From NCBI GenBank assembly GCA_017882785.1, contig JADGOV010000004.1, positions 1,521 to 65,520 of the forward strand: 64,000 bases of DNA. The letters run 5' to 3'. This document shows positions 14,720-31,858 of this stretch, piece by piece. The first letter of the stretch is position 1; each line of letters starts with the position of its first letter. Under the pieces are notes generated by a model that worked only from the letters and a program-made list of their open reading frames with translations, was not told the DNA's origin and did not search any database. A program made the position numbers and the translations under genes. This DNA is from Frankiaceae bacterium (GTDB lineage: Bacteria; Actinomycetota; Actinomycetes; JADGOV01).

Positions 14720-14847
14720 ACGACCAAGTCAGGCACCCAACCGCCCCGAAAGGCCGCCGAGCTGCGTGGACGCCACCCAAGATCACGGTAGCCAGCTAGG
14801 CTTAGGACGGCAGCAGGCGTTGAGTGAGTGTTGAGGGGGGCATCGTG

Positions 14848-17800
14848 ATGTTCCGCCCGCTGCCGGCCCGTGTCGACCTGCCGGCGCTGGAACGGGAGGT
14901 CCTCACCCGCTGGCGAGAGTGCGGTGTGTTCGCCCGCTCGCTGGCCCAGACCGCCGACGGACCGCTTTGGGTCTTCTACGAGGGCCCGCCGACGGCGAAT
15001 GGCCGGCCGGGGACGCACCACACCGAGGCCCGCGCCGTCAAGGACATCTACTGCCGGTTCAAGACCATGCAGGGGTTCTCCGTGCCCCGCCGGGCCGGCT
15101 GGGACTGCCACGGCCTGCCCGTGGAACTGGCCGTGGAGAAGGAACTCGGGTTCACCGGCAAGGGTGACATCGAGGCGTACGGCGTGGCCGAGTTCAACGC
15201 CCGCTGCCGGGAGTCCGTGCTGCGCCACGTCGCCGAGTTCGAGCAGCTGACCGAACGGCTGGGCTACTGGTGCGACATGGCGGATGCCTACCGCACGATG
15301 GACCCGCAGTACATCGAGTCGGTCTGGTGGTCGTTGAAGGTCATCTTCGACAAGGGTCTGCTCGTCCAGGATCATCGAGTGTCGCCGTACTGCCCGCGCT
15401 GCGGCACCGGCCTCTCCGACCATGAGGTGGCCCAGGGCTACCTCATGGTCACCGACCCCAGCGTCTACGTACGCTTCCCGGTGACCAGCGGCGAGTGGGC
15501 CGGGCGGGCGTCCCTGCTGGTCTGGACGAGCACCCCCTGGACATTGATCTCCAACACCGCGGTCGCGGTGCACCCGGACGTGACCTACGTCGCCGCCCGG
15601 GTCACCGGACCGGGTGCTGAGACCCTCATCGTGGCCGAGCCGCTGCGTGCCAGGGTCCTCGGCGAGGACGCCGAGGTGCTCGCCACGATCCCCGGGCGGG
15701 AGCTGGAGCACGTCGGCTACGAGCGGCCGTTCGACCTGCTCGCGATCCCGGACGCGCACTACGTCGGCCTGGCCGACTACGTGACCGTGGAGGACGGGAC
15801 CGGCCTGGTCCACCAGTCCCCAGCGTTCGGCGCGGACGACCTCGAGGTGGCCCGCCGCTACGGGCTGCCGGTGGTCAACCCGGTCGGGCTCGACGGACGC
15901 TTCGCCGCCGACCTGCCACTGGTCGGCGGTCAGTTCTTCAAGTCCGCCGACCCCCACATCGTTGCCGACCTCCGCGCCCGGGGCCTGCTCTACCGCTACG
16001 CCGACTACAGCCACAGCTATCCGCACTGCTGGCGCTGCGACACACCGCTGATCTACTACGCGCTGCCGTCGTGGTACATCCGCACCACCGCGATCCAGGA
16101 TGCGCTGCTGCGGGAGAACGCCGCCACCGACTGGCACCCGCCGCGGGTGAAGACCGGGCGCTACGGCGACTGGCTGGCGAACAACGTCGACTGGGCACTG
16201 TCCCGCAACCGCTACTGGGGGACGCCGCTGCCGATCTGGCGCTGCGCGGCGGAGGGCGACCCGCACCTCACCGTGGTGGGTTCCCTTGCCGAGCTCTCCA
16301 CGCTGGCCGGTGCCGATCTCAGCGGTCTCGACCCGCACCGCCCGTACCTCGACGAGGTCACCTTCCCCTGCCCCGAGTGCGGCTTGCCGGCCAGCCGCGT
16401 GCCGGAAGTGATCGACGCCTGGTACGACTCCGGCGCGATGCCGTTCGCCCAGTGGGGTGCGCCGCACCGCCGCGAGGAGGAGTTCCGCGCCGCCTATCCC
16501 GCCCAGTTCATCGCCGAGGCCATCGACCAGACCCGCGGCTGGTTCTACACGCTGATGGCAGTCGGCACGCTGGTATTCGACCGGTCCTCCTACGAGACAG
16601 TGTTGTGCCTGGGCATCATCCTCGACGAGCACGGTCGCAAGATGAGCAAGCACCTGGGCAACGTGCTCGACCCGTTCTCCCTCTTCGACCAGCACGGTGC
16701 GGACGCGGTGCGCTGGTTGATGCTCTGCGGCGGGTCACCCTGGGCGGACCGGCGGGTCGGCAACGAGCCGCTTGCCGAGGTGGTGCGCAAGGTACTGCTC
16801 ACCTACTGGAACACCGTGTCGTTCTTTACCCTCTACGCCAGCGTCAACGACTGGACCCCGCAGAGCGCGCCCCCACCGGCCGTGGCGGAACGGCCGGCTC
16901 TGGACCGGTGGGCGCTGTCGGAGCTGCACGAGACCGTGCGCGTCGTGACCGATGCCCTGGACGGCTTCGACTCAGCCGGTGCCGGTCGTCGCCTGAGCAG
17001 ATTCATCGACGACCTGTCGAACTGGTACGTCCGCCGCTCCCGCCGGCGGTTCTGGGTCGGTCAGCCCGCAGCGCTGGGCACATTGCACGAGTGTCTGGAG
17101 GTGCTCACCCGCCTGCTGGCGCCGTTCGTCCCATTCGTCACCGACGAGGTGCACCAGCGCATCGTCGGCGACGTCCGGCCCGACCTCCCGGACTCGGTGC
17201 ACCTGCGGGAATGGCCAGTCGGTGACCCCGCCCTGGTCGATGAGCCGCTGGCCGAACAGATGGGGCTCGTACGGCGGCTCGTGGAACTGGGACGCGGGGC
17301 CCGGGCGTCGTCCAAGCTGCCCACCCGCCAGCCGCTGGGCCGGGCCTTGGTCGTGGCCCACGGGTGGGACGGGCTGGCGGCCGACTTGCGGGCGGAGGTG
17401 CTCGAGGAGCTGAACGTCACAGCCGTCGAGGTGGGCAGGGTTGAGGTGGACATCTCGGTCAAGCCCAACTTCCGCGAACTCGGGCGCCGTTTCGGGCCAC
17501 GGACCAAGGCCGTCGCCGCGGCGGTTGCCCAACTGGTCCCGGCGCAGGTAGCCGCAGCCCTGGCCGAGACCGGATCGGTGGGTGTGTGGGTCGGAGGCGC
17601 CGACGAGCCGCCGGAGAGGATCAGCGCGGCCGAACTGCAGGTCACCGAGACGCCACGGGAGGGCTGGGCGGCGGCCACGGCCGCCGGTGAGACCGTGGCC
17701 CTGGACCTCACTCTGACCGCTGAGCTGCGCCGCGCCGGCCGGCTACGGGAGGTTGTCCGGTTGGTGCAGGAGGCCCGGAAGACGACCGACCTGGAGGTGG

Positions 17801-17991
17801 CCGACCGGATCGAGTTGTGGTGGCGGGCCGTCGACCCGGTCACCGCGCAGGCGCTGCGGGAGGGCCGCGAGCACCTGGCCGGTGAGGTGCTCGCAGTCAC
17901 CGTCACCGAGGGCGAACCGCTGGCGGCAATCGTGCCCCACGCCGCGGAGGACCTCGGGCTGACATTCTGGCTGCGCGTCGTGGGCGGTTGA
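14848..17991 (+). CDS. ileS: Isoleucyl-tRNA synthetase.
   Basis: GPPTANGRPGTHH (HIGH-class) and KMSKHLGN motifs, with zinc-finger cysteines. The ATG at 14848 is preceded by GAGGGGGG. The track ORF starts at an upstream GTG, 14824. Confidence 0.95.
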   Translation: MFRPLPARVDLPALEREVLTRWRECGVFARSLAQTADGPLWVFYEGPPTANGRPGTHHTEARAVKDIYCRFKTMQGFSVPRRAGWDCHGLPVELAVEKELGFTGKGDIEAYGVAEFNARCRESVLRHVAEFEQLTERLGYWCDMADAYRTMDPQYIESVWWSLKVIFDKGLLVQDHRVSPYCPRCGTGLSDHEVAQGYLMVTDPSVYVRFPVTSGEWAGRASLLVWTSTPWTLISNTAVAVHPDVTYVAARVTGPGAETLIVAEPLRARVLGEDAEVLATIPGRELEHVGYERPFDLLAIPDAHYVGLADYVTVEDGTGLVHQSPAFGADDLEVARRYGLPVVNPVGLDGRFAADLPLVGGQFFKSADPHIVADLRARGLLYRYADYSHSYPHCWRCDTPLIYYALPSWYIRTTAIQDALLRENAATDWHPPRVKTGRYGDWLANNVDWALSRNRYWGTPLPIWRCAAEGDPHLTVVGSLAELSTLAGADLSGLDPHRPYLDEVTFPCPECGLPASRVPEVIDAWYDSGAMPFAQWGAPHRREEEFRAAYPAQFIAEAIDQTRGWFYTLMAVGTLVFDRSSYETVLCLGIILDEHGRKMSKHLGNVLDPFSLFDQHGADAVRWLMLCGGSPWADRRVGNEPLAEVVRKVLLTYWNTVSFFTLYASVNDWTPQSAPPPAVAERPALDRWALSELHETVRVVTDALDGFDSAGAGRRLSRFIDDLSNWYVRRSRRRFWVGQPAALGTLHECLEVLTRLLAPFVPFVTDEVHQRIVGDVRPDLPDSVHLREWPVGDPALVDEPLAEQMGLVRRLVELGRGARASSKLPTRQPLGRALVVAHGWDGLAADLRAEVLEELNVTAVEVGRVEVDISVKPNFRELGRRFGPRTKAVAAAVAQLVPAQVAAALAETGSVGVWVGGADEPPERISAAELQVTETPREGWAAATAAGETVALDLTLTAELRRAGRLREVVRLVQEARKTTDLEVADRIELWWRAVDPVTAQALREGREHLAGEVLAVTVTEGEPLAAIVPHAAEDLGLTFWLRVVGG

Positions 17992-18156
17992 GCGGCCCCG
18001 CGATCAGGACAGGTTCAGGACAGCCACATCCGGCGCACGTAGACGAAGATGACGACGAGGAGGACGGCCAGGACGACCTTCCACAGCACGCGGCGTTCCG
18101 AGCGGCGATCCCGCGCCAGTTCCTCGGCCGGTGGATCCCGAGGCGGCGGTAGGTCC

Positions 18157-19704
18157 TCACCCACTGCGGAGGTCGACCTGCCCGGTCTTCTCGGTCTTGT
18201 CCCAGCGCATCTCCGCATTGCGCATTTCCGCGATGTAGGCGGTGAGGGTGACCATGCAGAGCAACGGTCCGTAGCCGCCGATGTAGATCAGTAACGGGGA
18301 CAGCCGGCGGAACCTGGTCGACTCCAGTCGCTTGGCCAGCCACGCCACTGCCATGCAGCCGGCCACCCAAGCGAAGCTGAAGATAGTCACCGCCGTACGG
18401 GTCGGGCCGCGCCAGGACGGCCCTATCCACGACATGAAGTGGGCCCCGAGCCAGTCCGCCGCGACCGGGACGCAGGTCAGCAGGATGATCGACAATGAGA
18501 TCGCTCCAGGAAACAGCAGCGCCTCCCGCCAGACCCGCCGGCCGGTCGGCGGATCCAGGGCAAGGGTCAGCGAGGTGATGAAGAGCCAGCTGACCGCATT
18601 CACGATCCACAGCGCGTGGAAGACCTGCCAGGCGCGGCCGACGTCGAGGACGTACAGCAGGAGCAGGCTGAGGCAGGAGGCGATCATCAATGCCGGCAGG
18701 AGCAGCAGGCAGAACCAGAGGATGCCGAAGCCGATGCTGCCCAGCCGATGGTCCGGGGAGGGGCGGAACCACACGCTGCGGAAGCGCCGGGTGACCTGGA
18801 TGTTGCCGCGGGCCCATCGCAACCGCTGCTTGCAGAGCCCACTCAGTGTCGCCGGCTCCTCGGCCCACACGACGGCGTGCGGCTCGAAGACCACCCGTCG
18901 CCCACCGAGCTGGGTGAGGAATGTCGTGACGGTGTCCTCGGCAAGGGTGCTGGGGTCGATCCGGCCGCCGACCGCGATCAGGTTCTCCCGGGTCAGCAGC
19001 TGGGCGCCGCCGGCGAGACAGGCCATCGCGCCGAGAACGTTCTGTGCGCGGCGCCCGCCGGCCTGCGCCGCGGCGTACTCGAAGGCGACGAACCGGGTGA
19101 GGTAGTTCCCCGGCCGGGAGCCTTCCTTGATGTAGGCGGTGACGGCGCCTACCCGCGGATCGGCGAGGTGTCGGGTCATCCGGCGCAGCGACGACGCCTC
19201 GTAGACGACGTCGGCGTCCATGATCAAGAGGGCCTGCATCCAGTCGTCGGCGAGGATCTCGCGCAGGCCGTGGTTGAGGGTGTGCGCCTTGCCTTCCCCA
19301 CCTTTCTCCCGACGTACGTGCACCACCTGCCCATGGTGCCGGCGGGCCAGCGCCTGCACCACCTGCGGCGTGTCGTCGGTGCTGGCGTCGTCGACGACGT
19401 AGACCCGCAGTTGGTCGCCGGGGTAGTCCAGCGACACCAGCCGCTCGATGCTGCAGTCCAGGACCGCGCCTTCGTTCCAGGCTGGCACGAGGATCGCGAC
19501 CCGCGGGCTGGACGGTCCGACGGCGTCGTAGTGGTCGCGCCAGCGGTGCGCGCCGACGAGTAGGAACTGGTAGGCCCCCGCCGCCAGCGGCGCCGCACCG
19601 AGCACCACCAGCACCACGAGCACCCACCAGCCGGACTGCCAAACCGCCTGCCAGGCCGTAGCCCAAGAAGTCGCGGACAATCCATACGGCATCTTGCCGG
19701 CCAT
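18157..19704 (-). CDS. Membrane GT2 processive (synthase-type) glycosyltransferase, PgaC/IcaA/NodC/cellulose-synthase-like.
   Basis: ATG at 19704. An N-terminal TM helix is followed by the GT2 catalytic domain (VYVVDDAS…DAD…QRLRWARG, the QxxRW motif) and C-terminal multi-TM helices. Confidence 0.8.
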   Translation of the reverse strand: MAGKMPYGLSATSWATAWQAVWQSGWWVLVVLVVLGAAPLAAGAYQFLLVGAHRWRDHYDAVGPSSPRVAILVPAWNEGAVLDCSIERLVSLDYPGDQLRVYVVDDASTDDTPQVVQALARRHHGQVVHVRREKGGEGKAHTLNHGLREILADDWMQALLIMDADVVYEASSLRRMTRHLADPRVGAVTAYIKEGSRPGNYLTRFVAFEYAAAQAGGRRAQNVLGAMACLAGGAQLLTRENLIAVGGRIDPSTLAEDTVTTFLTQLGGRRVVFEPHAVVWAEEPATLSGLCKQRLRWARGNIQVTRRFRSVWFRPSPDHRLGSIGFGILWFCLLLLPALMIASCLSLLLLYVLDVGRAWQVFHALWIVNAVSWLFITSLTLALDPPTGRRVWREALLFPGAISLSIILLTCVPVAADWLGAHFMSWIGPSWRGPTRTAVTIFSFAWVAGCMAVAWLAKRLESTRFRRLSPLLIYIGGYGPLLCMVTLTAYIAEMRNAEMRWDKTEKTGQVDLRSG

Positions 19705-19709
19705 GGCGG

Positions 19710-20465
19710 CTAGGCCGCTGCCGCGAGGTCGTCCACCACAGCCCGGACGTAGGACCAGCGCGCCACCTCGGCGGGGGCGTGGGCGTCGCTGCCCGCGGTG
19801 AGCAGGACGCCTTGTCGGGCGAGCATCCGCACGACCCGGCTGGAGGGGCAACGCCACTTCTCGTTGATCTCTACTGCGGACGCGGTACGCCGGCAGGTGG
19901 CGGCGAGGCGGTTGAGGTGCTCCTTGCCCACCGCCGTCTCCGTGAGCCCGCACTTGGGCAGCACGCTGAACAGGTGAGCGATGATCGCTGGGAGCGGTGA
20001 GGATTCCAGTGCCCGCACCGTCGCCTCGATCAGCGCGTCCACAACCGCCGCCGCCGGAAGCTCACCCCGGTCGATGGCGGACCGCACGTCGGCCGGATGC
20101 AGCGGGCCGTCGAGAGCAGGCACCCGGTGGTCGGCGACGAGCACGTAGTCGACGCCGGCCAGCGCGTGGGGCAGGTCAAGTCGCCCCCGGGTGTCCAGGA
20201 TCTTCGCCTCGACCCCGCACCGGACCGGCAGGGCGGCGAGACGGCGGGCTGAGCGCACGGCGCGCACGTACTCCGGCACCCAGTCGGTGTCCGACCGGAC
20301 GTGGTCGCTCACCCCCATTCCGCTGAGGTCGAGACGCTCGGCCTGAGCGATCATGTCGGCAAGCGGGGCGTGCCCGTCGCTGGTTGTCGTGTGCATGTGC
20401 AGGTCCACGGCCAACGCCGGCGGGCTCAGGCCGCGGCTCGCCGTAGGGTCGAGACCGGGGGTCAC
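19710..20465 (-). CDS. PHP-family metal-dependent phosphoesterase (CpsB/HisK-like).
   Basis: DLHMHTTTSDGHAPLADM is the N-terminal PHP motif, and downstream His/Asp metal ligands are present. 251 aa. Confidence 0.65.
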   Translation of the reverse strand: MTPGLDPTASRGLSPPALAVDLHMHTTTSDGHAPLADMIAQAERLDLSGMGVSDHVRSDTDWVPEYVRAVRSARRLAALPVRCGVEAKILDTRGRLDLPHALAGVDYVLVADHRVPALDGPLHPADVRSAIDRGELPAAAVVDALIEATVRALESSPLPAIIAHLFSVLPKCGLTETAVGKEHLNRLAATCRRTASAVEINEKWRCPSSRVVRMLARQGVLLTAGSDAHAPAEVARWSYVRAVVDDLAAAA

Positions 20466-21505
20466 GCCGGCACCGCGACCCGCTGCTCGCCGCGCCTGAG
20501 CAGGTCATCGACCTCGCTCACCGGCACGTAGCGTTCCGCCCAGTAGCGCACGACGGCGATGTCCCGATACGCCAGCGACGTCGGCAGCGGCCGGCCCAGC
20601 AGGTCGTGCAGGGCCCATGCGGGCAGGTCAACACCGGCCTGCACGGTAAGAGGCATTGTCCCGGGAAAACGCGGGTTCACTTCCAGCAGTGCAGGACGCC
20701 CGGCCGAGTCCGCACGACACTGCACGTTGGCCACCCAGCGCAGGCCGACCGCTCTGGCCACCCGCTTGCCGAAGTCCTCCAGGGCCGGATCGCTGACCGT
20801 CCGTGCGGCGACGGCGATCCCGGAGTCCACCTTGTCCCGCCGCCGCGGCACCACGGCCACGACGCGGCCCGGGCCGGCGAGCACGTCGAGGGACCACTCC
20901 GCCCCCGGCAGCAACTCCTGGACGATCATCGAGCCGTCCCGCGGGAGGTCGGCCAGGCCGGCTGGGGCGGTGACCTGCGCTACCCCGCGCCCGCCCGCCC
21001 CCCGCCGAGGCTTGACCACGACGGCCCCGGTGAGCCCCGCGGCCGCGAGCGCCCCGTCATCGAGCCCATGATCGAGGACTCGGGTGTGCGGCACGCGCAC
21101 TGCGCCGGCACAGACCCGGACGAGCGTCGCCTTGTCCAGGGTTCGGGCCAGCGTGGCGGGTGACTCGACGAGGACCCGGACCCCGTGCTGGGCGAAATCC
21201 GCGACCCGGCGACTTATCGGTGCCAGCTCGACGTCGACGGTGGGCACCAGCACGTCGACCTTGTGCCGCACGCACGCCGCGAGCAGGGCCGTGGTGAACT
21301 CGGGAGCGTCACCACGCGGCAGCAGCTCTCGGCGAGTCGGCGGAACCAGATACAGCCCCGCCGCGTACGGATCGAGGTCGGCCGCGATGAGGTCCACCCG
21401 GTCTTCGAGGTCGCGCAGGAAGGCCACCGCTGCGGCACCGCCGGCACCGGTGACCAGCACCCGCAGCCGGCGGCCCTGCGGGCCGCTGAGATCAGGTGAG
21501 GGCAC
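20462..21505 (-). CDS. ATP-grasp domain protein (carboxylate-amine ligase family). The start may be the internal GTG at 21460.
   Basis: Shows a pre-ATP-grasp region and the ATP-grasp fold (…VVKPRRGAGGRGV…IVQELLPG…LEVNPR…), resembling CPSase/RimK-like ligases. Confidence 0.65.
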   Translation of the reverse strand: MPSPDLSGPQGRRLRVLVTGAGGAAAVAFLRDLEDRVDLIAADLDPYAAGLYLVPPTRRELLPRGDAPEFTTALLAACVRHKVDVLVPTVDVELAPISRRVADFAQHGVRVLVESPATLARTLDKATLVRVCAGAVRVPHTRVLDHGLDDGALAAAGLTGAVVVKPRRGAGGRGVAQVTAPAGLADLPRDGSMIVQELLPGAEWSLDVLAGPGRVVAVVPRRRDKVDSGIAVAARTVSDPALEDFGKRVARAVGLRWVANVQCRADSAGRPALLEVNPRFPGTMPLTVQAGVDLPAWALHDLLGRPLPTSLAYRDIAVVRYWAERYVPVSEVDDLLRRGEQRVAVPA

Positions 21506-22982
21506 GAGTGCCGTCCTTCATGTCGCCGTCCTTCATCTGAGGAGCCACGTCGAAGGCCGCGGAGGCCGGGGTGCTCTCCCGCAGCACCTCCAGTGGCTCG
21601 GCGTAGGTCGTGCCGGTGGCCGTGCCGTGCACGCGGGCCTGGGCGATGAGCAGATCCTCGGCCAGGTAGTCGCGTTGGCCGATCTGGGACGCGAAGGCCG
21701 CCAGCAGAGCGATCTTTCGGGACATCACCGAGCCCACGTCGACGAAGCGGGTTGGGCGGAAGTCCACGGTCGCCGAAGGCGAACGGTAGCCGTACACCCG
21801 GCCGACCCGTCGGGTGGCGATCATCGCCGCCGAGTGCACCGCCCGGTGGTCCTGGTGGTGATCGTGGCTGGAGTGCACGTAGACGATGGTCGGGCGTACC
21901 GCAGCCACGACCTCCTCCACCACGTCGATCGTGGGCCGGCCCTCCGGGATCGCCGTGTCCGGCAGCTCGCCGAGGTAGAGGCGAGCGTCCAACAGCGCGG
22001 CGGCGCGCACCGACTCCTCCTGGCGCCGCGCCGGGTCGCCGCCGGTGGCCCCCGCGCTCATCGTCAGCACCGTGACCTCGTCGGCCTGCGCTGCGTGCAC
22101 GAGCAGCGCGCCGCCCGCGCCGATCTCCACATCATCCGGATGCGCACCGATGGCGAGCACCCGTTCCCGTCTGTCCTGGAAACGGGAAATCGCCCGCTGC
22201 ACAGCCTCGACCAACGCGGCGGGACGAATGGGCTTGGCCACGAAGTCGGCCGCGCCGGCGCGCATCGCCTCCACCGCGGTGGACATTCGGGCGTCGCCGG
22301 TCACGAGCACGGTCGGCAGCCCGGGCCGGGCTGCCTGCACGGCGGCGGCGAGTTCGAGGCCGTTGCGGCCGCTCATGTGGATGTCGGACACCACCGCATC
22401 ACAGACGCTCCCATCCCCGAGGGCGAGCAGCGCCTCTTCCGCGCTGGCCAGTGCGGTCACGGAATACCCACCCCGCTGGGTGAGCACCAACTCGAGCAGA
22501 CGCCGCAGATCAGGGTCGTCGTCGGCCACGATCACGCGGCCCCGCCGTTCCCGAGCCAGCCGGACGAGGTCGGCCGCGGCCACCACCGGCTCGCCGGAAC
22601 TCTCCCTGTGACGGCGCAGGAGGGCCTCGATCCGGGCCAGCAACTCATTCGCCCGGTAGGGCTTGGTCAGGTAGTCGTCGGCGCCGGACCGCAGGCCGCG
22701 GACGACGTCGCTGGGCCCGCCCTCCGCGGTGAGCATGATCACCGGCACGTCGCTGTGTCGGCGCACCCGCTGCAGCACCTGCCAGCCGTCCAGCTCCGGC
22801 AACCCGACATCGAGCACCACCAGATCCGGCTGCTCCTCCAGGACCGCCTGCAGCCCGGAGCGCCCGTCCTGCCGCGAGAACGTCTGGTAGCCATGCTCAG
22901 TGAGAAGCAACTCCAGCGCGCGGCGGATGTCGGCGTCGTCCTCGATGAGTACCACCCGCGCAGGTGACTGTCCGCCCGCCAT
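21492..22982 (-). CDS. Dual-receiver response regulator fused to a PIG-L/LmbE-family N-acetylglucosaminyl deacetylase domain (REC-REC-LmbE).
   Basis: REC1 is VVLIEDD…VVLDVGLPELDG…LTKPY. REC2 is VIVADDD…VVSDIHMSG…VAKPI. The C-terminal domain carries AIGAHPDDVEIGAGG and HSSHDHHQDH zinc-deacetylase motifs. The ATG at 22982 overlaps the histidine-kinase stop (ATGA). Confidence 0.75.
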   Translation of the reverse strand: MAGGQSPARVVLIEDDADIRRALELLLTEHGYQTFSRQDGRSGLQAVLEEQPDLVVLDVGLPELDGWQVLQRVRRHSDVPVIMLTAEGGPSDVVRGLRSGADDYLTKPYRANELLARIEALLRRHRESSGEPVVAAADLVRLARERRGRVIVADDDPDLRRLLELVLTQRGGYSVTALASAEEALLALGDGSVCDAVVSDIHMSGRNGLELAAAVQAARPGLPTVLVTGDARMSTAVEAMRAGAADFVAKPIRPAALVEAVQRAISRFQDRRERVLAIGAHPDDVEIGAGGALLVHAAQADEVTVLTMSAGATGGDPARRQEESVRAAALLDARLYLGELPDTAIPEGRPTIDVVEEVVAAVRPTIVYVHSSHDHHQDHRAVHSAAMIATRRVGRVYGYRSPSATVDFRPTRFVDVGSVMSRKIALLAAFASQIGQRDYLAEDLLIAQARVHGTATGTTYAEPLEVLRESTPASAAFDVAPQMKDGDMKDGTRALT

Positions 22983-24247
22983 CACCGGGCCTGCCACAAC
23001 GGAATCCGGATGCCGATGGTCGTGCCGACTCCGAGCTCGCTGGACATGGTGATCTGGCCACCGTGCCGGGACACGATCACCCGGGAGATCAGCAGTCCCA
23101 TGCCGGTACCGGGGATGCCCTCGGTCCGGGTGTTCGAGGCCCGGAAGACGTCGTGGAAGATCCGGTCCTGCTCCGCAACGGGGATGCCGATGCCGGTGTC
23201 CGCCACGTCGAGGGCCCATTGGGCACCCTCGCGCCTGGACCGCAGGCTCACCCGTCCCCCGGCAGGGGTGTACTTCACCGCGTTACCGACCACGTTGTCG
23301 AGAACCTGGGCCATTCGCTCCCGATCGACCTCGCTGCGAAGGCCGTCCTCGACCTCGTCCCCGACAAGGTCAAGGCCCTTCCGCTCGCTATAGGCGGCGC
23401 GGTGCCGCAACGCGTCGCGGGCCAGCTGACCTGTATCCACACTGGCCAGCCGCAGCGGCTCGTCCTCCCATTCCAGGGAGGCGATGAGCCGCAGATCCTC
23501 GACCAACCGGATGAGCCGCCGGGCGTTGCGCTCGATGACCTCGACGTATTCGGCCACAGCCGGGTCGGAGGTGCCGTCCAGGGACTCCGCCAGCAGTTCG
23601 GCGAAGCTCACCACCGAGGTGAGCGGCGTGCGCAGTTCGTGGGAGATCATCCGGGCCAGACCGGGCTCGCCGGGCTCGCCACGGCCGGCCGGCTCGTCCA
23701 AGCCGTAGATCACCAAACCCTGCACGGCCGGCTCGTCCCGCAGGTCGCGCACCACGGTGCGCAGGCTGCGGTAGCCGCCGTCGCGGTGGCGCACCCGCAG
23801 CGTGAACGGGGCGCTCGCGGCCGGCGGATCGCTGAGCTGACGTACCAAGCCGGCGCGGTCGTCCGGATGAACGAGCTCAAGCACTTCCACCGGAGGCTGA
23901 TCCTGCGGATAACTCAGCGTCTGCATCCCTTGCGAGGACAGCCATTGCCAGTTTCCGTCGGCGTCCAGCAGTCCGACCAACGCGGGGATCTGGTCGAGAA
24001 CGACCGCGCGCAGCCGATCGCTCGCGTCACCCGCCCCGATCTGCTCGGCCAGCGGGTGGCCACCGTCGGCCGCCAGAGCCACGGACGACCTCGGTGGTCC
24101 GGGGACGCCCGAGGGTGCCGAATCCGCCCCCGCCGGCGAGGACTGGCGCGGCACCGTCCGAGACGACGGAACATCCGAGGTCGGCTGCAGAGCCTGCAGA
24201 GCGCTCGGGTCACGGCTCGGGTCGGGGGTCACGTTTGGCACGCGCAC
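22982..24247 (-). CDS. Cytoplasmic PAS-domain sensor histidine kinase.
   Basis: A PAS region is followed by the HisKA H-box MISHELRTPLTSV and HATPase_c (N, G1 DTGIGI, G2 GTGMGL). No TM segments are present. It is translationally coupled to the downstream response regulator. Confidence 0.8.
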   Translation of the reverse strand: MRVPNVTPDPSRDPSALQALQPTSDVPSSRTVPRQSSPAGADSAPSGVPGPPRSSVALAADGGHPLAEQIGAGDASDRLRAVVLDQIPALVGLLDADGNWQWLSSQGMQTLSYPQDQPPVEVLELVHPDDRAGLVRQLSDPPAASAPFTLRVRHRDGGYRSLRTVVRDLRDEPAVQGLVIYGLDEPAGRGEPGEPGLARMISHELRTPLTSVVSFAELLAESLDGTSDPAVAEYVEVIERNARRLIRLVEDLRLIASLEWEDEPLRLASVDTGQLARDALRHRAAYSERKGLDLVGDEVEDGLRSEVDRERMAQVLDNVVGNAVKYTPAGGRVSLRSRREGAQWALDVADTGIGIPVAEQDRIFHDVFRASNTRTEGIPGTGMGLLISRVIVSRHGGQITMSSELGVGTTIGIRIPLWQAR

Positions 24248-24354: not shown

Positions 24355-24570
24355 AGAAAGTCGCGAGACCTGCTGCCCGTGAACGGCCATTGCGGCCCGG
24401 CGGCAAGCTGAGAAGCTGCCGATGAACGGCTGCTATCGTGGGGTCCTGGAATATGATTAGCAGATTCGCACAATGAGGTTCGGATCTTTTCTGGACGTCT
24501 CCCCCCAGCCCGGGCAGCTATCCATTACAGCCCTGCTGGCGGGACATTGGTTCCGGGAGACGTGGTGGGA

Positions 24571-26121
24571 ATGCGCATTCTGATATTCCATGGCTACCTC
24601 CTGCGGGGCACAGGAAGTAATATCTACAATACGGAGCTGGCCCGGTGGCTGGTCGATCTCGGCCACGAGGTACATCTGTTGTGCCAGGAAAGGCACGCGG
24701 CGGAATTCGATTTCGTGGATGCCGTCGGCCGCTGGCGTCACGGGCGGCTGGACGTCGAGGTCACGCGCCGTCCGGTCCGCTGTACTGCTTACCTCCCGGA
24801 CATCGGCGGCCTCCTGCCGGTCTATGTGGCCGATCACTACGAGGGATTCGACGCGCGCCCCTTTCCGGAGCTGACAGACGGTCAGATCGAACATTACATC
24901 GCGGCAAACACCGCCGCCGTTCGCGACGTCGTCGCGGCGGTCGAGCCGGACGGGGCCCTCGCGAACCACCTGGTGATGGGCCCGGTGATCCTGGCCCGCG
25001 CGCTGGCTGGCCGCGTCCCCTATGCGATCAAGATCCACGGTTCGGCCCTCGAGTACACCGTCCGGCCCAACGTCGGACGATTCGGCTCCTACGCCCGCGA
25101 GGGCCTGGCGGGAGCAACCGGGGTCCTCGTCGGCTCACGCCATACCGCCGAGAGCCTGTGGGAGGTCGTCGGTCTGCCGGACCTTCCGGCTCGCACCCGG
25201 CTCCTCCCGCCAGGTGTCGACGTCCGCAGGTTCCACCCCCGCCCGCCCGGGGAGGCCAAGGATGGGTTGCGTGCGCTGGCAGCACGCGTGGAGGCGGACC
25301 CGCCCACCTGGGGCGGGGAAGCCGACGCGGCGCAAGCCATCAGGGCAGCCGACCCCACCCGGGATCGGATTGTCAGCTATGTCGGGAAACTCATCGCCTC
25401 GAAGGGCGTGGACCTGCTCATTGCGGCCTGGCCACTGGTCATCGACCGCGCTCCTGACGCCCGCCTCATGATCGCCGGCTTTGGCGCCTATCGTCACGCG
25501 CTGCTCCAACTCGCCCGCGCCCTGGGCGAGGGCGATCTGGCGGCCGCGCGGGTCATCGCCAGCCGCGGACGGGAACTGGAAGGAGGGCCTCCGGGGGAGC
25601 TTCGCTACCTGGCCGCGTTCCTCGATGGCCTCACCGGCGCGGAGCAAGAACGCTACCTGAACGCCTCCCCGGCCGCTATGCGGCGTATCCATTTCACCGG
25701 GCGGATCGAACACGATGATGTCTCCGAACTCATGTGCGCGTCCCAGGCGGTGGTCGTCCCGAGTACATTCCCGGAGGCTTTCGGCATGGTCCTCGCAGAA
25801 GCCGCGTGTTGCGGGGCGATGCCGCTGTCGGCAGCCCACTCGGGGCTCGCGGAGGTGACTGAGGTGCTAGCGCCCGCATTGCGTAAGGACCTGCGCCCTC
25901 AGCTGTCCTTCCAGCTGGGCCCCGGCGCCGTGCGGGAGATCGCCGATAAGCTGGCTTGTTGGCTGTCGTTCACTGCGAACACACCGAATGCCTGGAGACA
26001 GGCCCGCGAGGACCTGGCCGATCTTGCCTGCGCCCAGTTTGGCTGGCAGGAAGTGGCCAAGGGTGTCGCGGCGGCCGCCCGGGGCCAGCTCGGCGGGCTG
26101 CCGCCCGTGCCCGTGGACTGA
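24571..26121 (+). CDS. GT4-family (GT-B) glycosyltransferase.
   Basis: ATG at 24571. MRILIFHGYLLRGTGSNIYNTELARWLVDLGHEVHLL opens the N-domain; the C-domain contains EAFGMVLAEAACCGAMPL (E-x7-E region). 516 aa. Confidence 0.8.
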   Translation: MRILIFHGYLLRGTGSNIYNTELARWLVDLGHEVHLLCQERHAAEFDFVDAVGRWRHGRLDVEVTRRPVRCTAYLPDIGGLLPVYVADHYEGFDARPFPELTDGQIEHYIAANTAAVRDVVAAVEPDGALANHLVMGPVILARALAGRVPYAIKIHGSALEYTVRPNVGRFGSYAREGLAGATGVLVGSRHTAESLWEVVGLPDLPARTRLLPPGVDVRRFHPRPPGEAKDGLRALAARVEADPPTWGGEADAAQAIRAADPTRDRIVSYVGKLIASKGVDLLIAAWPLVIDRAPDARLMIAGFGAYRHALLQLARALGEGDLAAARVIASRGRELEGGPPGELRYLAAFLDGLTGAEQERYLNASPAAMRRIHFTGRIEHDDVSELMCASQAVVVPSTFPEAFGMVLAEAACCGAMPLSAAHSGLAEVTEVLAPALRKDLRPQLSFQLGPGAVREIADKLACWLSFTANTPNAWRQAREDLADLACAQFGWQEVAKGVAAAARGQLGGLPPVPVD

Positions 26122-27426
26122 TGAGGGTTCGCGCACGAATGACTCTCGTTTGGCTGGTACAAGCGATCGGCCGTGCGGACCGGAAATCAGGAAGAAGGGG
26201 TCAGTCTTCCCAGCGGCGAGGATGTACCAGGCGGTCGCCCCGGTGTGCAGCGACGCGTAGTAGGAGCCGCCGCCGCAGTCGCTGAGCCCGTTCCTCGAGG
26301 CCGATATGATGCCGAGGCCGTCGCTGTTCGGCCCGTGCGCCTGGGCATGGTAGATGTCCGACAAGTACTCTGCTGCCCTTGCGCCGTCCCCGGGACCGCC
26401 GCGCAGTTCAAGCGCGTCAGCGAGGTGCGCGGTTCCCTCGAACCAGACGCCCGTACGGTCTCCACCGCAGAAGCTCACGCCGCTGAAACCGCCGGCGGAG
26501 ACGGCGAGGTTCCGCACATCCCAACCGACCGATGCGGCGTAGCCGGGATCTCGCAAGGCGAGATATGACCAGCTGTTGACATCTTCGGGAGTCACACTGT
26601 CGTTGGGGGTCTTCCCGTCGCTGGTTGTTCCGATGTAGAACCGGCCTTGCCGTGCGTCCCACACCCCCGCGACGAAGCGTCTCGCCCACGCCGCCCTGAC
26701 CGACCAGGCCGGGTCGCGCGTCTTCATGGCAAGCAGGCTGAAGAAGGCGTAGAGGTCGATGTTGTGCTCGGCGGACTTCCATTCGATCTTCTGGCCGTTC
26801 GCCGACTCGCCGCCCGTGTACCCGCCCGGCCCCCGCGTGTCGTGGCAGTGGGCCTGGACCCAGTTCCCGATCGCTTCCGCTCCCGTGAGGTAAACCCTCC
26901 GGCCGGTGGCCGCGTAGAGCTGGACAAGGGCCTGGCCGGCCCACGCCATGGCTCCTACGTGGCTGGCCGCGTCGGTGACCGTCACATCGCTCGGGCTGCG
27001 CAGTGGGGCTGGCGAGTACGCGGCGCGAACGCGGCCGTCATGCTGCGGATCGTGCGCCTGCACATACAGCAGCCCGTTGCCGATGACCTCTGCCCTGGAC
27101 CGTCCGCCCGGGGTGCCTGCCGCCAGGTACGCATCGACGAGGAGCGCGTCGTCGTAGGTCTCCGAGGCCGTGAAGTGCTGCTGTCCGAGAACGCCCCCGG
27201 TGAAGCTCTGCACGAGGCGTGGGGTCGAGCCTGCGGCGTACTTGTCCATCATCTGGCTGAGGAACGAATAAGCATCCGCGACGCTGCTCTGCAGCTGCCT
27301 GGCCGGAACCTGCGCGGGCGGGCCCGCGGCGCCTCGATCCCCGGCTGGGGCGCAGCCCACGATGCCGGCCGTGGTTGCGGCCAGCACGGCTGCCACGGCA
27401 GCACCCGCCAGGTCGACCCGACTCAT
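25867..27426 (-). CDS. Secreted lipoprotein, possibly an (alpha/alpha)6-type glycoside-hydrolase-like protein.
   Basis: ATG at 27426 with GGGAGAG upstream. Signal peptide plus lipobox MSRVDLAGAAVAAVLAATTAGIVGC. The body is rich in W/Y/D/G. The last ~85 codons overlap the convergent GT4 3' end and look non-protein-like, so a frameshift or mis-called end is possible. Confidence 0.5.
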   Translation of the reverse strand: MSRVDLAGAAVAAVLAATTAGIVGCAPAGDRGAAGPPAQVPARQLQSSVADAYSFLSQMMDKYAAGSTPRLVQSFTGGVLGQQHFTASETYDDALLVDAYLAAGTPGGRSRAEVIGNGLLYVQAHDPQHDGRVRAAYSPAPLRSPSDVTVTDAASHVGAMAWAGQALVQLYAATGRRVYLTGAEAIGNWVQAHCHDTRGPGGYTGGESANGQKIEWKSAEHNIDLYAFFSLLAMKTRDPAWSVRAAWARRFVAGVWDARQGRFYIGTTSDGKTPNDSVTPEDVNSWSYLALRDPGYAASVGWDVRNLAVSAGGFSGVSFCGGDRTGVWFEGTAHLADALELRGGPGDGARAAEYLSDIYHAQAHGPNSDGLGIISASRNGLSDCGGGSYYASLHTGATAWYILAAGKTDPFFLISGPHGRSLVPAKRESFVREPSSVHGHGRQPAELAPGGRRDTLGHFLPAKLGAGKIGQVLAGLSPGIRCVRSERQPTSQLIGDLPHGAGAQLEGQLRAQVLTQCGR

Positions 27427-27616
27427 CGCCACTCTCCCGCCGTGGTCGTGGCGGTGAAGGTGGCCGGCGTCGATCTCACGCTTCTGGGGAGGCGCGGTGA
27501 CGCCTGCCTCCGCCGCCAGCCGCCGAGGCCCGTGGGACGGTTGCTGTCCCCTTGGCGTCCCTGGTGAGAGCCGGGGCGGTCGTCCTCGGCCGTGACGGTC
27601 AGGCTCAGCGCAACGC

Positions 27617-27703
27617 CCCCTGCCTCGGCCCCGCCAGTGTCTTCGGCCCGCGCCGGACCGGCCTGAAGCAGGGGGCCTGCCAGCGAGCTGCTACGAACCG
27701 AGG
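27617..27703. repeat. Copy B of the conserved ~80-nt element.
   Basis: CCCCTGCC…CAGTGTCTTCGGCCCGCGCCGGACCGGCCTGAAGC…CTGCCAGCGAGCTGCTACGAACCGAGG. It lies immediately downstream of the yggT stop and about 190 nt upstream of the lipoprotein gene start, both on the minus strand. Confidence 0.5.
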
Positions 27704-27981
27704 TCGGCGACCACTGTCCGGAGGATGTTCACCAGGATGAACAGCACGAGGAAGGCCAGATCCAGCGCGACCCCGCCGATCCGCAGGGGTGGAATGATCC
27801 GTCGCAGCAGTCGCAGCGGTGGATCTGTGATCGAGTAGGTGATCTCCAAGACGATCACCATCACCCCGGTCGGCCGATAGCTGCGGGAGAGTTGGAAGAC
27901 CCACTCCATGACGAGCCGGAAGATCAGCAGGAGCAGGAAGATCAGCAGAGCGTCGCTCAACAGGCGAGCCACCAGTGCCAC
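27691..27981 (-). CDS. YggT-family small membrane protein (cell-division cluster).
   Basis: GTG at 27981 with GGGAGG upstream. VALVARLLSDALLIFLLLLIFRLVMEWV… is typical of YggT/YlmG. It lies downstream of sepF. Confidence 0.6.
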   Translation of the reverse strand: MALVARLLSDALLIFLLLLIFRLVMEWVFQLSRSYRPTGVMVIVLEITYSITDPPLRLLRRIIPPLRIGGVALDLAFLVLFILVNILRTVVADLGS

Positions 27982-28045
27982 GAAAGTACGGCCTCCCTGC
28001 AGACCCGCAAATGGTGGCGGGGAACGCCACCTGCCTTCCTCCAGG

Positions 28046-28552
28046 CTAGCTCTGGTTGAAGAAGCCACCTTCGGCGATGCGCTGCTTGTCCTCGGCGGTG
28101 ATCTGAACGTTGGCCGGCGACAGGAGGAAGACCTTGGCTGTCACCCGCTCGATGCTGCCGCGCAAGCCGAAGATCAACCCCGCGGCGAAATCGACGAGGC
28201 GCTTCGCGTCGTTATCGTCCATCTCGGAGAGGTTCATGATGACCGGCGTGCCTTCGCGGAAATGCTCACCGATGGTCCGCGCCTCGTTGTAGGTGCGGGG
28301 GTGCAGTGTGGTGATCCGCTGAGGCGGGCGCTCCACCTTGGCGCCAGGCTCGACGGTGCGGACCGCGGTCGCCACTCCCGCGGGACGGGAATCCTCCAGG
28401 CGGCGCACGCTGCCAGCCCGAGGGGCGGGGTCCTCAGCGGCACGCCGAGGGTGTTCGCCGCTCTCGGCCTCGTCGAGGTCGACATCGTACCGATCGTCGT
28501 CATCCTCGACCAGGCCGAGGTAGACCGCCATCTTTCGCATCGCGCCGGGCAT
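28046..28552 (-). CDS. sepF: Cell division protein SepF.
   Basis: M(P)[16 protein letters not shown]… at the N-terminus and the conserved C-terminal SepF domain (…[26 protein letters not shown]…). Confidence 0.85.
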
Positions 28553-28654
28553 GCTCGCGGGTCCTCCGGCTTCTCGGTGCTGGGTGTACCTGTGTGTACA
28601 AATATTGGTGCGAATGTCGGCGCCTACTGGGGGTCCAACTGCGTGCCGCCGACC

Positions 28655-29410
28655 TTATCCCAGGAGCATAGGCGGACGGCTTCCGAAGACTGCTGTTCCG
28701 ACACGCACAAGCGTGGCGCCGCAGGCGATGGCCGCCTCCAGGTCGGCACTCATCCCGGCCGAGATCGTGGCGGCGCTCGGGTGGTTCGCCCGCAGCCGGG
28801 CAGAGACGTCGGCGAGCACTGCGAAGGCCGCCACCGGGTCGGCACCGAGGGGCGCAACAGCCATCACGCCGCCGAACCGCAGCGAGGCCGCGGCGGCGAT
28901 CCGGTCGGCCAGCGCCGGAACGTCGGCAGGGGCGGCCCCGCCACGGCCCGGCCGACCGGTTCCAGCGCCCAGATCGACAGGGTCCAGGCTGACTTGGACG
29001 AGCGCGCGCACCTGGCGTCCGGCGCGGTCCGCGCCGCGTGCGAGCGCGTCGATGAGGTCCGGTCGGTCGAGGGAGTGCACGACGGCCGCGTACCGGGCGA
29101 CCGAAGCTGCCTTGTTGCGCTGCAGGCGCCCCACGAAGTGCCAGCGCACGTCAAGATCGGCCAGCTCTGCTGCCTTGACCCTCGCCTCCTGGTCACGGTT
29201 CTCCCCCAGGTCGTTGATCCCCAGGGCGACGGCGACCCGGATGTCGGTGGCCGGGAAGGTCTTCGAGACCGCCACCAGGGTCACCTCCGCCGGATCGCGA
29301 CCGGCGTCGGCGCAGGCCGCGGCGATCCGCGCACGCACGGCGCGCCATCCCCGCAGGATCTGCTCCCGCCGAATCTGCTCCTCGGTGCTGGTCTGCTCGC
29401 CGCCGCTCAC
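28655..29410 (-). CDS. YggS-family pyridoxal-phosphate homeostasis protein.
   Basis: GTG at 29410. …AEVTLVAVSKTFPA…GENRDQEA…WHFVGRLQRNK… is the alanine-racemase-N-like YggS fold. Confidence 0.8.
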   Translation of the reverse strand: MSGGEQTSTEEQIRREQILRGWRAVRARIAAACADAGRDPAEVTLVAVSKTFPATDIRVAVALGINDLGENRDQEARVKAAELADLDVRWHFVGRLQRNKAASVARYAAVVHSLDRPDLIDALARGADRAGRQVRALVQVSLDPVDLGAGTGRPGRGGAAPADVPALADRIAAAASLRFGGVMAVAPLGADPVAAFAVLADVSARLRANHPSAATISAGMSADLEAAIACGATLVRVGTAVFGSRPPMLLG

Positions 29411-29417
29411 CGGCGGC

Positions 29418-30173
29418 TCACCGGCGGACCACGACGCCCGCAAAGCGACCCGTGACCCCGGAGCGTCGGTAGGAGTAGAACCGCTCGTCCTCCGCGGTAC
29501 AGACCGCCTCACGGTGCACCTGCCGCACACCGAGACCGCGCAGGACCGTCACCGCGGTCCGCGGCAGGTCCAGCGACGGCGTGCCCCACCGGGTGGTCGA
29601 CACGCTCTGTGGCACCCATCCCGCGACCTGCGCTTGCAGGTCAGCCGGCACCTCGTAGCAGCAGCCCCCGACTGCCGGGCCGATGGCGGCCACCACTGCT
29701 GTCGGTTCACTCCCGTACGCGGCCATGGCGGCCACACACCGCGCCAGCACACCGGCCACCAGCCCGCGGCGCCCGGCATGGGCCGCCGCCACCACGCCGG
29801 CCACCGGGTCGGCGAGCAGGACCGGCACACAATCCGCGACGAGCACGCCGAGGGCGACCCCGGGGCGGTTGGTGACCAGCGCATCGCAGGTCGGAGTGAC
29901 CTCAGCGCCAGGCGGGTCGGCCCCCACGACGTGCACCGTCGCGCCATGCACCTGCCGGCCGAAGTGCACCCCGTCCACCCCGAGCCAGCTCGCGATGGCC
30001 GCTCGGTTGGCCCCGACCGCGGCCGGGTCGTCACCGACCGCAGCAGCCAGGTTCAACTCTGCGTACGGCCCCGTGCTGCATCCGCCCCAGCGGGTGGTGA
30101 AGATGCCGGTGACGTCCTTCGGTAGCCGGGCTACCAGCGGTGCCAGTCCAGCCGGCGGTGAGGCGCCGGCCAC
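29418..30173 (-). CDS. pgeF: PgeF/YfiH family (laccase-domain) purine nucleoside phosphorylase / peptidoglycan editing factor.
   Basis: …TTRWGGCS…DALVTNRPGVALGVLVADCVPVLL…HAGRRG… are YfiH motifs. It lies immediately downstream of ftsZ. Confidence 0.8.
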   Translation of the reverse strand: MAGASPPAGLAPLVARLPKDVTGIFTTRWGGCSTGPYAELNLAAAVGDDPAAVGANRAAIASWLGVDGVHFGRQVHGATVHVVGADPPGAEVTPTCDALVTNRPGVALGVLVADCVPVLLADPVAGVVAAAHAGRRGLVAGVLARCVAAMAAYGSEPTAVVAAIGPAVGGCCYEVPADLQAQVAGWVPQSVSTTRWGTPSLDLPRTAVTVLRGLGVRQVHREAVCTAEDERFYSYRRSGVTGRFAGVVVRR

Positions 30174-31541: not shown

Positions 31542-31858
31542 GTTCTGCACGTCCTTATCGCGACGGCGGGCTGGGCGCGCGGCGTCCAGCTGACTGACGG
31601 AGGGGCTGTTGCCCGCTGATGGCGAGGGGAAGGCGCCACCGCAGCCGAACGCGTCGGCCGTGGGCTGAGCTTGAGCGTATCCGAGGCTTGCATCACCTTC
31701 AGGTTGAGGGTTACTGTGGCTCAACCTTCGGCTTAGGGCTGGACACTAGACCGGCCACCTAGGCGGGTCAAGGACGCCGCGCGAGCCGTTCGGCGACGGT
31801 GCCTCACTGGTGCGTATTTGACCCACAAGCTCCCCCTGACCCGCACCCGCCGATCTCC

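Follow-up and report, generated by a model that had tools for sequence, protein, structure and literature searches.

Can a bacterial response regulator carry a sugar deacetylase as its output, and what would such an enzyme be for? This question was raised by a gene at positions 21492-22985 (minus strand) of a 64,000-nt stretch of high-GC DNA (about 70%) from a Frankiaceae bacterium (assembly GCA_017882785.1, contig JADGOV010000004.1, positions 1,521 to 65,520), which is referred to below, at its full length, as the window. The gene encodes a protein of 497 aa if read from the GTG at 22985, or of 496 aa if read from the ATG at 22982, in which two receiver (REC) domains precede an LmbE/PIG-L zinc deacetylase domain. 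We consider it probable that this protein is an enzyme-output response regulator, namely a deacetylase under His-Asp control that is the first enzyme of a six-gene cassette of the N-acetylglucosamine (GlcNAc)-swap type. The REC-LmbE cassette, which recurs in many other genomes with a single receiver, is a broader and more interesting object than the double receiver found locally.

The REC-REC-LmbE protein is encoded by one uninterrupted gene

The regulator gene is a single uninterrupted open reading frame (ORF) spanning both receivers and the LmbE/PIG-L domain. Pfam matched Response_reg twice (E 6.3e-54 overall; best stretch at residues 11-120, second at about 150-268) and PIG-L at residues 277-390 (78.4 bits against a cut-off of 28.2). 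Between 22985 and about 21560, the GC content at third codon positions (GC3) peaked in a single frame throughout, also across the junction of the first and second receivers (REC1 and REC2). The identical 496-aa protein was found on 20 independent contigs in JGI, ENA and Logan assemblies, derived from different samples and assemblers, and nine full-length variants belong to its 90% cluster, where a few scattered substitutions and an indel of 5 aa in the C-terminal tail, which is repetitive, set them apart. This tail (21492-21569, minus strand) is disordered and carries the short repeat MKDGD MKDGT, an extra unit of which brings two cluster variants (P0122 and P0128) to 501 aa. The original prediction had allowed for a frameshift that would split the REC and LmbE parts; the two parts are unsplit, and since the fusion was found on 20 independent contigs, it is real and no assembly artefact. 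The idea that a frameshift or indel in sequencing or assembly joined a neighboring receiver gene to a REC-LmbE gene, which could draw on the separate receiver-containing gene directly upstream of REC-LmbE in the closest relatives (1-4 nt overlap) and on the single full-length representative among 1.84 billion cluster representatives, is effectively refuted by these contigs, the scattered variants and the continuous GC3 signal, as well as by the absence of about 85 residues of a DNA-binding domain, a loss beyond any single indel. An AlphaFold2 (AF2) model built on 63 sequences reached a mean predicted local distance difference test score (pLDDT) of 86.9, with values of 86-98, most of them 94-98, per ten-residue block over REC2 and the LmbE domain.

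Two receivers precede a predicted catalytically complete LmbE domain

REC1 (22596-22958, minus strand; residues 10-130) is a receiver of the OmpR-family type. Its Pfam stretch covers the full Response_reg profile (positions 1-111), which identifies it as a receiver, and the alignment showed that it keeps the full set of phospho-chemistry residues (D16/D17, D59, T86, Y105 and K108). Its matches to receivers in the PDB reach an E-value of 1e-28, and the best ones in both NCBIfam and the PDB are the receivers of MtrA, RpaB, PhoB and VicR. REC2 (22170-22541, minus strand; residues 149-272) is the ancestral receiver of the family, the acid pocket (D156/D157), acceptor Asp (D201), Thr (T229), aromatic residue (F248) and Lys (K251) of which are invariant or nearly so in 62 relatives; it too qualifies as a receiver, with five strand-helix units in the AF2 model at pLDDT 91-98. 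The tandem-receiver part superposed best on PleD, the top Foldseek match. As a whole, the regulator falls outside the OmpR/PhoB family, Pfam having given no Trans_reg_C match behind REC1, and outside the PleD-like REC-REC-GGDEF proteins, Pfam having found no GGDEF domain in it.

Members of the LmbE superfamily are recognized by an HXD1D2+H motif for metal binding and catalysis on a Rossmann-like alpha/beta fold (PMC4101496). The output domain of the regulator (21570-22169, minus strand; residues 273-472), which contains H282-P-D284-D285 and H377-Q-D-H380, belongs to this LmbE-like/PIG-L superfamily by its motif, its Pfam score and its Foldseek template modeling (TM) scores. AHPDD (H282, D284 and D285) and HQDH (H377 and H380) aligned with the zinc ligands and catalytic residues of BshB (6p2t) and BC1534 (2ixd), H377 corresponding to the second catalytic histidine of BC1534, His110; the domain also aligned to TT1542 (1uan), and the residues of both motifs are invariant across the REC-LmbE family. 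In Foldseek, the output domain matched the same three structures at TM scores of 0.77-0.83, together with chitobiose deacetylase. Judged from these alignments and from the model, the output domain is a catalytically complete LmbE fold. No solved structure in the PDB and Foldseek searches joins a receiver to an LmbE domain. The two complete receivers and the LmbE/PIG-L output with its AHPDD and HxxH zinc motifs had been proposed from the letters of the DNA, and both proposals hold, as the acceptor Asp (D59 and D201) and Lys (K108 and K251) are kept in each receiver and all catalytic residues are kept in the output domain.

The regulator is coupled to a soluble histidine kinase

The gene directly upstream (22982-24247, minus strand) encodes a soluble sensor histidine kinase with PAS-like, HisKA and HATPase_c parts. 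The longest ORF gives 421 aa, but its first 55 codons have a weak coding signal by GC3, and the probable start is at 24082 (366 aa), where the gene callers place it; on 8 contigs the called product has 366 or 353 aa. Pfam matched HisKA (3.5e-16) and HATPase_c (2.5e-25) clearly, the H-box reads SHELRTPL, and the protein has no hydrophobic or transmembrane segment (maximum 19-residue Kyte-Doolittle value, KD19, 1.11). The PAS_3 match (5.1e-05) scored 23.9 bits, just under the gathering score of 25.6, and with this sub-threshold module the predicted soluble PAS kinase was borne out. The kinase core is closest to the PAS kinases located directly upstream in the relatives whose gene orders are given below.

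The junction of the two genes reads CGGTGATGG, in which the kinase stop codon overlaps the regulator start, either as a 4-nt GTGA overlap with the GTG start or as a 1-nt TGATG overlap with the ATG start chosen by the gene callers. An ATGA overlap had been claimed here; the translational coupling to the kinase stands, whereas the ATGA has to be replaced by GTGA or TGATG.

The REC-LmbE gene opens a strongly conserved operon

In the window, the cassette genes run on the minus strand in the order kinase, REC-REC-LmbE, ATP-grasp ligase, PHP, GT2 and small tail-anchored protein, and are tightly packed with overlaps of 1-14 nt. The gene of the ATP-grasp ligase (20462-21505, minus strand) overlaps the end of the regulator gene by 14 nt at its start, and the ligase is of the ATPgrasp_Ter/PylC-like N-terminal type (Pfam PF15632, 5.5e-30; closest PDB entry 2pn1). 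It is overlapped by 4 nt by the gene of a PHP-family metal-dependent phosphoesterase (19710-20465, minus strand; Pfam PHP 9e-10), which has weak and generic PHP matches only in NCBIfam and the PDB. Next comes a membrane GT2 glycosyltransferase of the synthase type (18157-19704, minus strand; Pfam Glyco_tranf_2_3 8.6e-32) with a probable start at 19704 and 515 aa; the longest ORF reaches 19953, and the start at 19704 agrees with GC3 and the gene callers. It has the motifs D, DxD, ED and QRLRW and about six transmembrane segments, and in the PDB it matched 6yv7 as well as hyaluronan and cellulose synthases. Its best named NCBIfam match is PgaC_IcaA, followed by MftF, NodC and others with lower scores, and at 127.5 bits it stays below the 422.3 bits that mark the PgaC/IcaA equivalog (TIGR03937). 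The last gene (18015-18164, minus strand), the GTG start of which overlaps the GT2 gene end by 8 nt, encodes a small tail-anchored membrane protein of 49 aa ending in '...RRSERRVLWKVVLAVLLVVIFVYVRRMWLS'. The ATP-grasp, PHP and GT2 proteins had generic matches only in the PDB and NCBIfam, which assign no substrate, and a search for Rosetta-stone fusions among the homologs of the ATP-grasp ligase found none, all of them being 323-375 aa long and generically named.

The conservation of this cassette was assessed by mapping the window proteins with tblastn on 80 genome loci of relatives. In 69 of the 76 loci with room for it, the ATP-grasp gene was the immediate downstream neighbor of REC-LmbE, and in 54 of 70 the three genes for ATP-grasp, PHP and GT2 were colinear. 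A histidine kinase was found inside 62 of the 80 loci, and at least 51 of 69 have, behind the GT2 gene, a small ORF in which an RRxERxL motif precedes one transmembrane helix. The gene order also recurred in every individual context that was opened. The REC-LmbE gene is thus the first of a tightly conserved operon, in which it is followed by the ATP-grasp, PHP, GT2 and small tail-anchored protein genes and usually accompanied by its own kinase, and which gives the deacetylase a pathway context.

Could the pathway be that of a thiol? On such an account, the LmbE domain would be the organism's low-molecular-weight thiol deacetylase, a BshB or MshB ortholog to which receivers have been added, and together with a GT4 glycosyltransferase and the ligase it would make a thiol resembling bacillithiol or mycothiol. 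BshB1 is indeed the best NCBIfam and PDB match of the domain. A divergently transcribed GT4 gene (24547-26121, plus strand; Pfam Glycos_transf_1 and Glyco_transf_4) with weak matches to MshA and BshA adjoins the kinase gene, and a GT4 82% identical to it immediately follows the ATP-grasp gene in a Streptosporangiaceae metagenome-assembled genome (MAG; L049:10187-11785), where it occupies the usual place of PHP and GT2 before the contig ends. The set of GT4, phosphatase, LmbE and ATP-dependent ligase would moreover parallel MshA, MshA2, MshB and MshC. However, the BshB1 score (NCBIfam TIGR04001; 94.5 bits) is about half of the equivalog cut-off of 182.5, and for the MshB and Mca equivalogs (TIGR03445 and TIGR03446) there was no MshB match and only a faint Mca match of 16 bits against 277. 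The cassette contains no homolog of BshC, MshC or MshD, which also speaks against a BshB1 assignment, and its ligase is an ATP-grasp enzyme rather than a Cys-tRNA-synthetase-like one. As partners, a membrane GT2 and a small transmembrane protein are conserved, while the GT4 is absent from 79 of the 80 loci. Taken together, a thiol pathway is very unlikely, and the GT4 may be an accessory of the cassette in the clade of the window only, its sequence hinting that the window organism is related to the L049 MAG.

Distribution and variants of the REC-LmbE family

A homolog search of 5.8 billion proteins yielded 834 scored matches, and the architecture was inspected in the best 120. All of these except the query's own cluster are 334-404 aa long with one receiver and PIG-L, and the names that automated pipelines assign to them are 'response regulator' or 'LmbE family N-acetylglucosaminyl deacetylase/CheY-like chemotaxis protein'. 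Relatives were found in at least 494 genomes in a scan with one genome per species, mostly in Actinomycetota (Microbacteriaceae, Cellulomonas, Nakamurella, Blastococcus, Streptosporangiaceae, Acidimicrobiia, Thermoleophilia and Conexibacter), with a few Proteobacteria, whose cassettes have no PHP gene, and one Vicinamibacteria MAG. Cultivable carriers include Microbacterium, Cellulomonas, Leifsonia, Leucobacter, Nakamurella and Conexibacter.

A full-text literature search found no paper on a receiver-LmbE fusion, a characterized LmbE-output regulator or the cassette operon, an absence that it does not prove, and the words 'receiver' and 'response regulator' do not occur in the 2014 review of the LmbE superfamily (PMC4101496). 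This agrees with the original prediction, in which no characterized LmbE-output regulator was recognized. The rarity that it implied applies to the double receiver, which is confined to one lineage, and not to the REC-LmbE architecture, which occurs in the genomes of at least 494 species and is already annotated automatically. The architecture is visible in automated annotation, yet the family is uncharacterized and is predicted to mark an undescribed glycoconjugate pathway.

The signaling part of the locus varies. Some loci have a hybrid kinase containing a histidine phosphotransfer (Hpt) domain, and in a Microbacterium locus the signaling genes are REC-LmbE, a stand-alone REC and a PAS kinase only, with no DNA-binding regulator. 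Streptomyces sp. (L098:6920-8044) and Jatrophihabitans endophyticus (L099:6823-8004) have the same cassette of LmbE, ATP-grasp, PHP, GT2 and small ORF with no kinase adjoining it, and their LmbE proteins begin with a degenerate receiver that Pfam does not recognize, the Lys being lost in both and the Asp in L099.

Such proteins lend some color to the view that the receivers are no longer switches at all, the enzyme being constitutive and its REC domains serving as structural or oligomerization modules like pseudo-receivers, since in both genomes the rest of the cassette is kept. Against this view, REC2 shows little or no variation in its acid pocket, acceptor Asp, Thr and Lys across the window protein and 62 relatives, a kinase is present in 62 of the 80 loci and is translationally coupled in the window, and the phospho-residues of REC1 are all kept. 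We therefore hold it to be quite unlikely for the window protein.

Other variants were observed beside these. In a Rhodoglobus MAG (L063:4728-6831) the REC-LmbE genes form a tandem pair, and at a further MAG locus (L037:11047-13990) a tandem pair of GT2 genes follows the cassette. In L006 (9898-10749) and L008 (7503-8246), a protein of 247-283 aa without Pfam matches is encoded downstream of the small ORF; tblastn identified it as a distant paralog of the cassette PHP enzyme (32-41% identity).

Origin of the double receiver

In an exhaustive HMMER scan of the cluster representatives, only the one mentioned above matched residues 2-497, and all other LmbE-containing matches began at or beyond query residue ~130, most of them near 150. 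The double receiver is limited to one species-level lineage, the known copies of which are about 99% identical, so the fusion appears to be young.

The source of REC1 was sought in the gene orders of the relatives. In the closest of them (L006, L008 and L010) the order is kinase, OmpR-type regulator, PAS kinase, stand-alone receiver and REC-LmbE, and in L040, L065 and L084 it is kinase, OmpR-type regulator and REC-LmbE. The core of REC1 is 54-60% identical to the receivers of the upstream OmpR-type regulators versus 46-50% to the stand-alone receivers, and it is without the loop insertion typical of the latter. The linker between REC1 and REC2 (22542-22595, minus strand; residues 131-148) contains 'EPVVAAADLVRLA' after helix alpha5, which aligned with 'AEVYDDGLVRVAF' and 'PEVYDDGQVRLDP', the sequences with which the winged helix-turn-helix (wHTH) domain opens in the regulators of L040, L010, L006 and L008; 'AEVYDDGLVRVAF' is the one in L040. 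Behind 'EPVVAAADLVRLA' comes 'RERRGRVIVADDDPD', the usual N-terminus of REC-LmbE proteins. Of the DNA-binding domain, about 13 residues similar to the first wHTH strands are left, whereas about 85 residues are gone; the AF2 pLDDT drops below 50 at linker residues 132-137. These alignments suggest, without proving it, that the linker probably retains what is left of the opening strands of a winged-helix DNA-binding domain. In the simplest reading, a deletion of most of this domain and of the intergenic region fused an OmpR-type receiver to REC-LmbE. An origin of REC1 from the upstream stand-alone receiver by loss of its stop codon was considered and rejected on the lower identity, the absence of the insertion and the wHTH-like linker.

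A proposed pathway and its control

Transfer of GlcNAc, its deacetylation by an enzyme of the LmbE, CE4 or LpxC type, and N-acylation form the route in mycothiol, bacillithiol, teicoplanin, Nod factor and lipid A, and the deacetylation by LpxC is the committed, regulated step of lipid A synthesis. The near-obligatory adjacency of an ATP-dependent ligase to REC-LmbE fits such a scheme, in which GlcNAc is installed, deacetylated and re-acylated. On these grounds we infer an enzymatic activity, a substrate, a product, and a direction and mechanism of phospho-control for the regulator. It would be an N-deacetylase of the LmbE type, cytoplasmic and zinc-dependent, that the adjoining soluble PAS kinase controls through His-Asp phosphotransfer. 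A glycosyltransferase would put GlcNAc on an acceptor at the cytoplasmic membrane face, and the LmbE domain would then strip the acetyl group, an irreversible step that commits the intermediate. The ATP-grasp enzyme would re-acylate the freed amine, the carboxylate used for this probably being an amino acid, the PHP enzyme might take a phosphate off the intermediate like the MshA2 phosphatase, and the GT2 with its small partner would make or export the glycoconjugate, the GT2 thus being either the GlcNAc transferase or the exporter.

Because it is irreversible and committing, as with LpxC in lipid A synthesis, deacetylation would be the logical switch point. Phosphorylation of D201 in REC2 is predicted to alter the deacetylase activity, so that the kinase would gate the flux post-translationally. 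In the AF2 model, helix alpha5 of REC2 (255-272) is followed within two residues by the strand 275-280 and then by AHPDD at 281-285, which would place the phosphorylation-responsive alpha4-beta5-alpha5 face near the catalytic loop in sequence. As LmbE enzymes of the BC1534 type crystallize as oligomers (PMC4101496), receiver-driven dimerization or oligomer assembly is our preferred mechanism, a CheB-like relief of occlusion being the alternative. For REC1, the role of a second phospho-acceptor, of a phosphate sink or of a dimerization handle is conceivable.

A different product would follow if the cassette made an exopolysaccharide resembling poly-N-acetylglucosamine (PNAG) or chitin, with REC-LmbE tuning the degree of N-deacetylation, and thereby the charge, as a cytoplasmic counterpart of PgaB or IcaB, and with the ATP-grasp and PHP enzymes in unrelated tailoring or precursor roles. 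This explanation is doubtful, although the best named match of the GT2 to PgaC/IcaA, then to MftF and NodC, together with its D, DxD, ED and QRLRW motifs and about six transmembrane segments, would suit it, as would the small transmembrane partner behind the GT2, which stands as IcaD and PgaD stand behind their synthases. On the other side, the PgaC score is far under its cut-off of 422, and the known PNAG deacetylases are extracytoplasmic CE4 enzymes, while the regulator has neither a signal peptide nor a transmembrane segment. The adjacency of the ATP-grasp gene in 69 of 76 loci further argues that the amine is consumed by ligation and not left free.

Several points weigh against the phospho-controlled deacetylation and re-acylation that we favor. 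Phospho-control appears dispensable for the pathway, because Streptomyces and Jatrophihabitans keep the cassette with a degenerate receiver and no kinase. The length of the linker from alpha5 to beta1 differs among relatives, which weakens a model of rigid coupling. The LmbE domain fits no named NCBIfam subfamily above its cut-off, which weakens the assignment of a substrate, and the role given to the PHP enzyme is a guess. Synthase-type GT2 enzymes normally extrude the polymer during synthesis, so that access of a cytoplasmic deacetylase and ligase to the product is problematic. The double-receiver fusion is known from one population of ~99% identity only, and the literature search found no biochemical or genetic data on any member of the REC-LmbE family.

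In its widest form, our proposal is that a widespread, mainly actinomycetotal pathway uses phosphotransfer to gate the committed N-deacetylation of an undescribed N-(amino)acyl-glucosamine envelope glycoconjugate, and that the lineage of the window turned the OmpR-type factor of this pathway into a second receiver. We put this forward tentatively, as possible rather than probable. If true, it would be a phosphorylation-based counterpart of the control of exopolysaccharide synthases by cyclic di-GMP (c-di-GMP), and the window lineage would have rewired a branched output of transcription plus enzyme to a purely post-translational one.

Neighboring genes in the window

Beyond the GT4 gene lies the gene of a predicted lipoprotein of 521 aa (25867-27432, minus strand) with a signal-like N-terminus and a Cys. 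It had no Pfam or NCBIfam match and insignificant PDB matches to (alpha/alpha)6 glycoside hydrolases and epimerases, and it was not found near the cassette in the other mapped loci. The GT4 and lipoprotein ORFs converge and overlap by 255 nt (25867-26121), which is either an unusually long convergent overlap or the result of a mis-set end; the gene callers on other contigs give about 516 aa for the GT4 and 519 aa for the lipoprotein.

The cassette is located at the end of a division cluster comprising ftsZ, pgeF/Cu-oxidase_4, yggS, sepF and yggT (27691-31724), with a convergent ileS (14824-17991) on its other side. In many actinobacteria, divIVA follows yggT; no DivIVA-like ORF was noted in the division cluster of the window, in which no search aimed at DivIVA was made. 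The longest ORF at 13718-14719 (plus strand) combines TetR_N with a GNAT domain (Acetyltransf_CG) and may be a fusion or two adjoining genes.

Comparison with known systems

Enzyme-output response regulators are few and mostly act on signaling molecules or proteins. Like the single-receiver regulators CheB (REC-methylesterase/deamidase), RpfG (REC-HD-GYP) and RssB (REC-PP2C-like), the regulator has an N-terminal receiver on the same chain as a C-terminal hydrolase, and its predicted control would likewise be post-translational, with the phosphate coming from a dedicated kinase. Unlike CheB, it has a Rossmann-like zinc amidohydrolase of the LmbE type as its output and not a Ser-His-Asp esterase, and it is predicted to act on a sugar conjugate, in the setting of a biosynthetic operon, instead of on a signaling protein. 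If this is true, a sugar-tailoring enzyme would be switched directly, which would be a new way of remodeling the envelope within seconds and without transcription.

With PleD (REC-REC-GGDEF) the regulator shares a tandem-receiver stem before an enzyme domain, and activation by dimerization may be plausible for it as well. In PleD, the arrangement is ancient and the second receiver is a non-phosphorylatable adaptor, whereas both receivers of the regulator keep the acceptor Asp and Lys, REC1 appears to be a recent graft of the OmpR type in one lineage, and the output domain is unrelated. The double-receiver protein thereby exemplifies how a domain deletion may convert a transcription factor into the regulatory module of an enzyme.

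The output domain resembles BshB, BC1534, TT1542 and MshB in its LmbE fold (TM 0.77-0.83) and its HXDD+H motif, but those enzymes are stand-alone proteins without a regulatory domain, and the regulator lies in a different operon, with ATP-grasp, PHP and GT2 genes. At the level of the operon, the cassette brings together a glycosyltransferase, a deacetylase and an amide-forming enzyme, as do LpxA/LpxC/LpxD, NodC/NodB/NodA, MshA/B/C, BshA/B/C and teicoplanin GtfA/Orf2*/Orf11*. It differs from these routes in that acylation would be carried out by an ATP-grasp enzyme, that the transferase is a multi-transmembrane GT2, and that regulation would act through a fused receiver and not through proteolysis or transcription. 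The cassette therefore predicts an undescribed glycoconjugate and, with its cultivable carriers, offers a tractable piece of actinobacterial envelope biochemistry. Finally, PgaCD and IcaAD likewise pair a GT2 synthase with a small membrane partner encoded directly downstream and place an envelope polysaccharide under post-translational control; there, c-di-GMP acts on the synthase, whereas in the cassette His-Asp phosphorylation would act on the tailoring enzyme.

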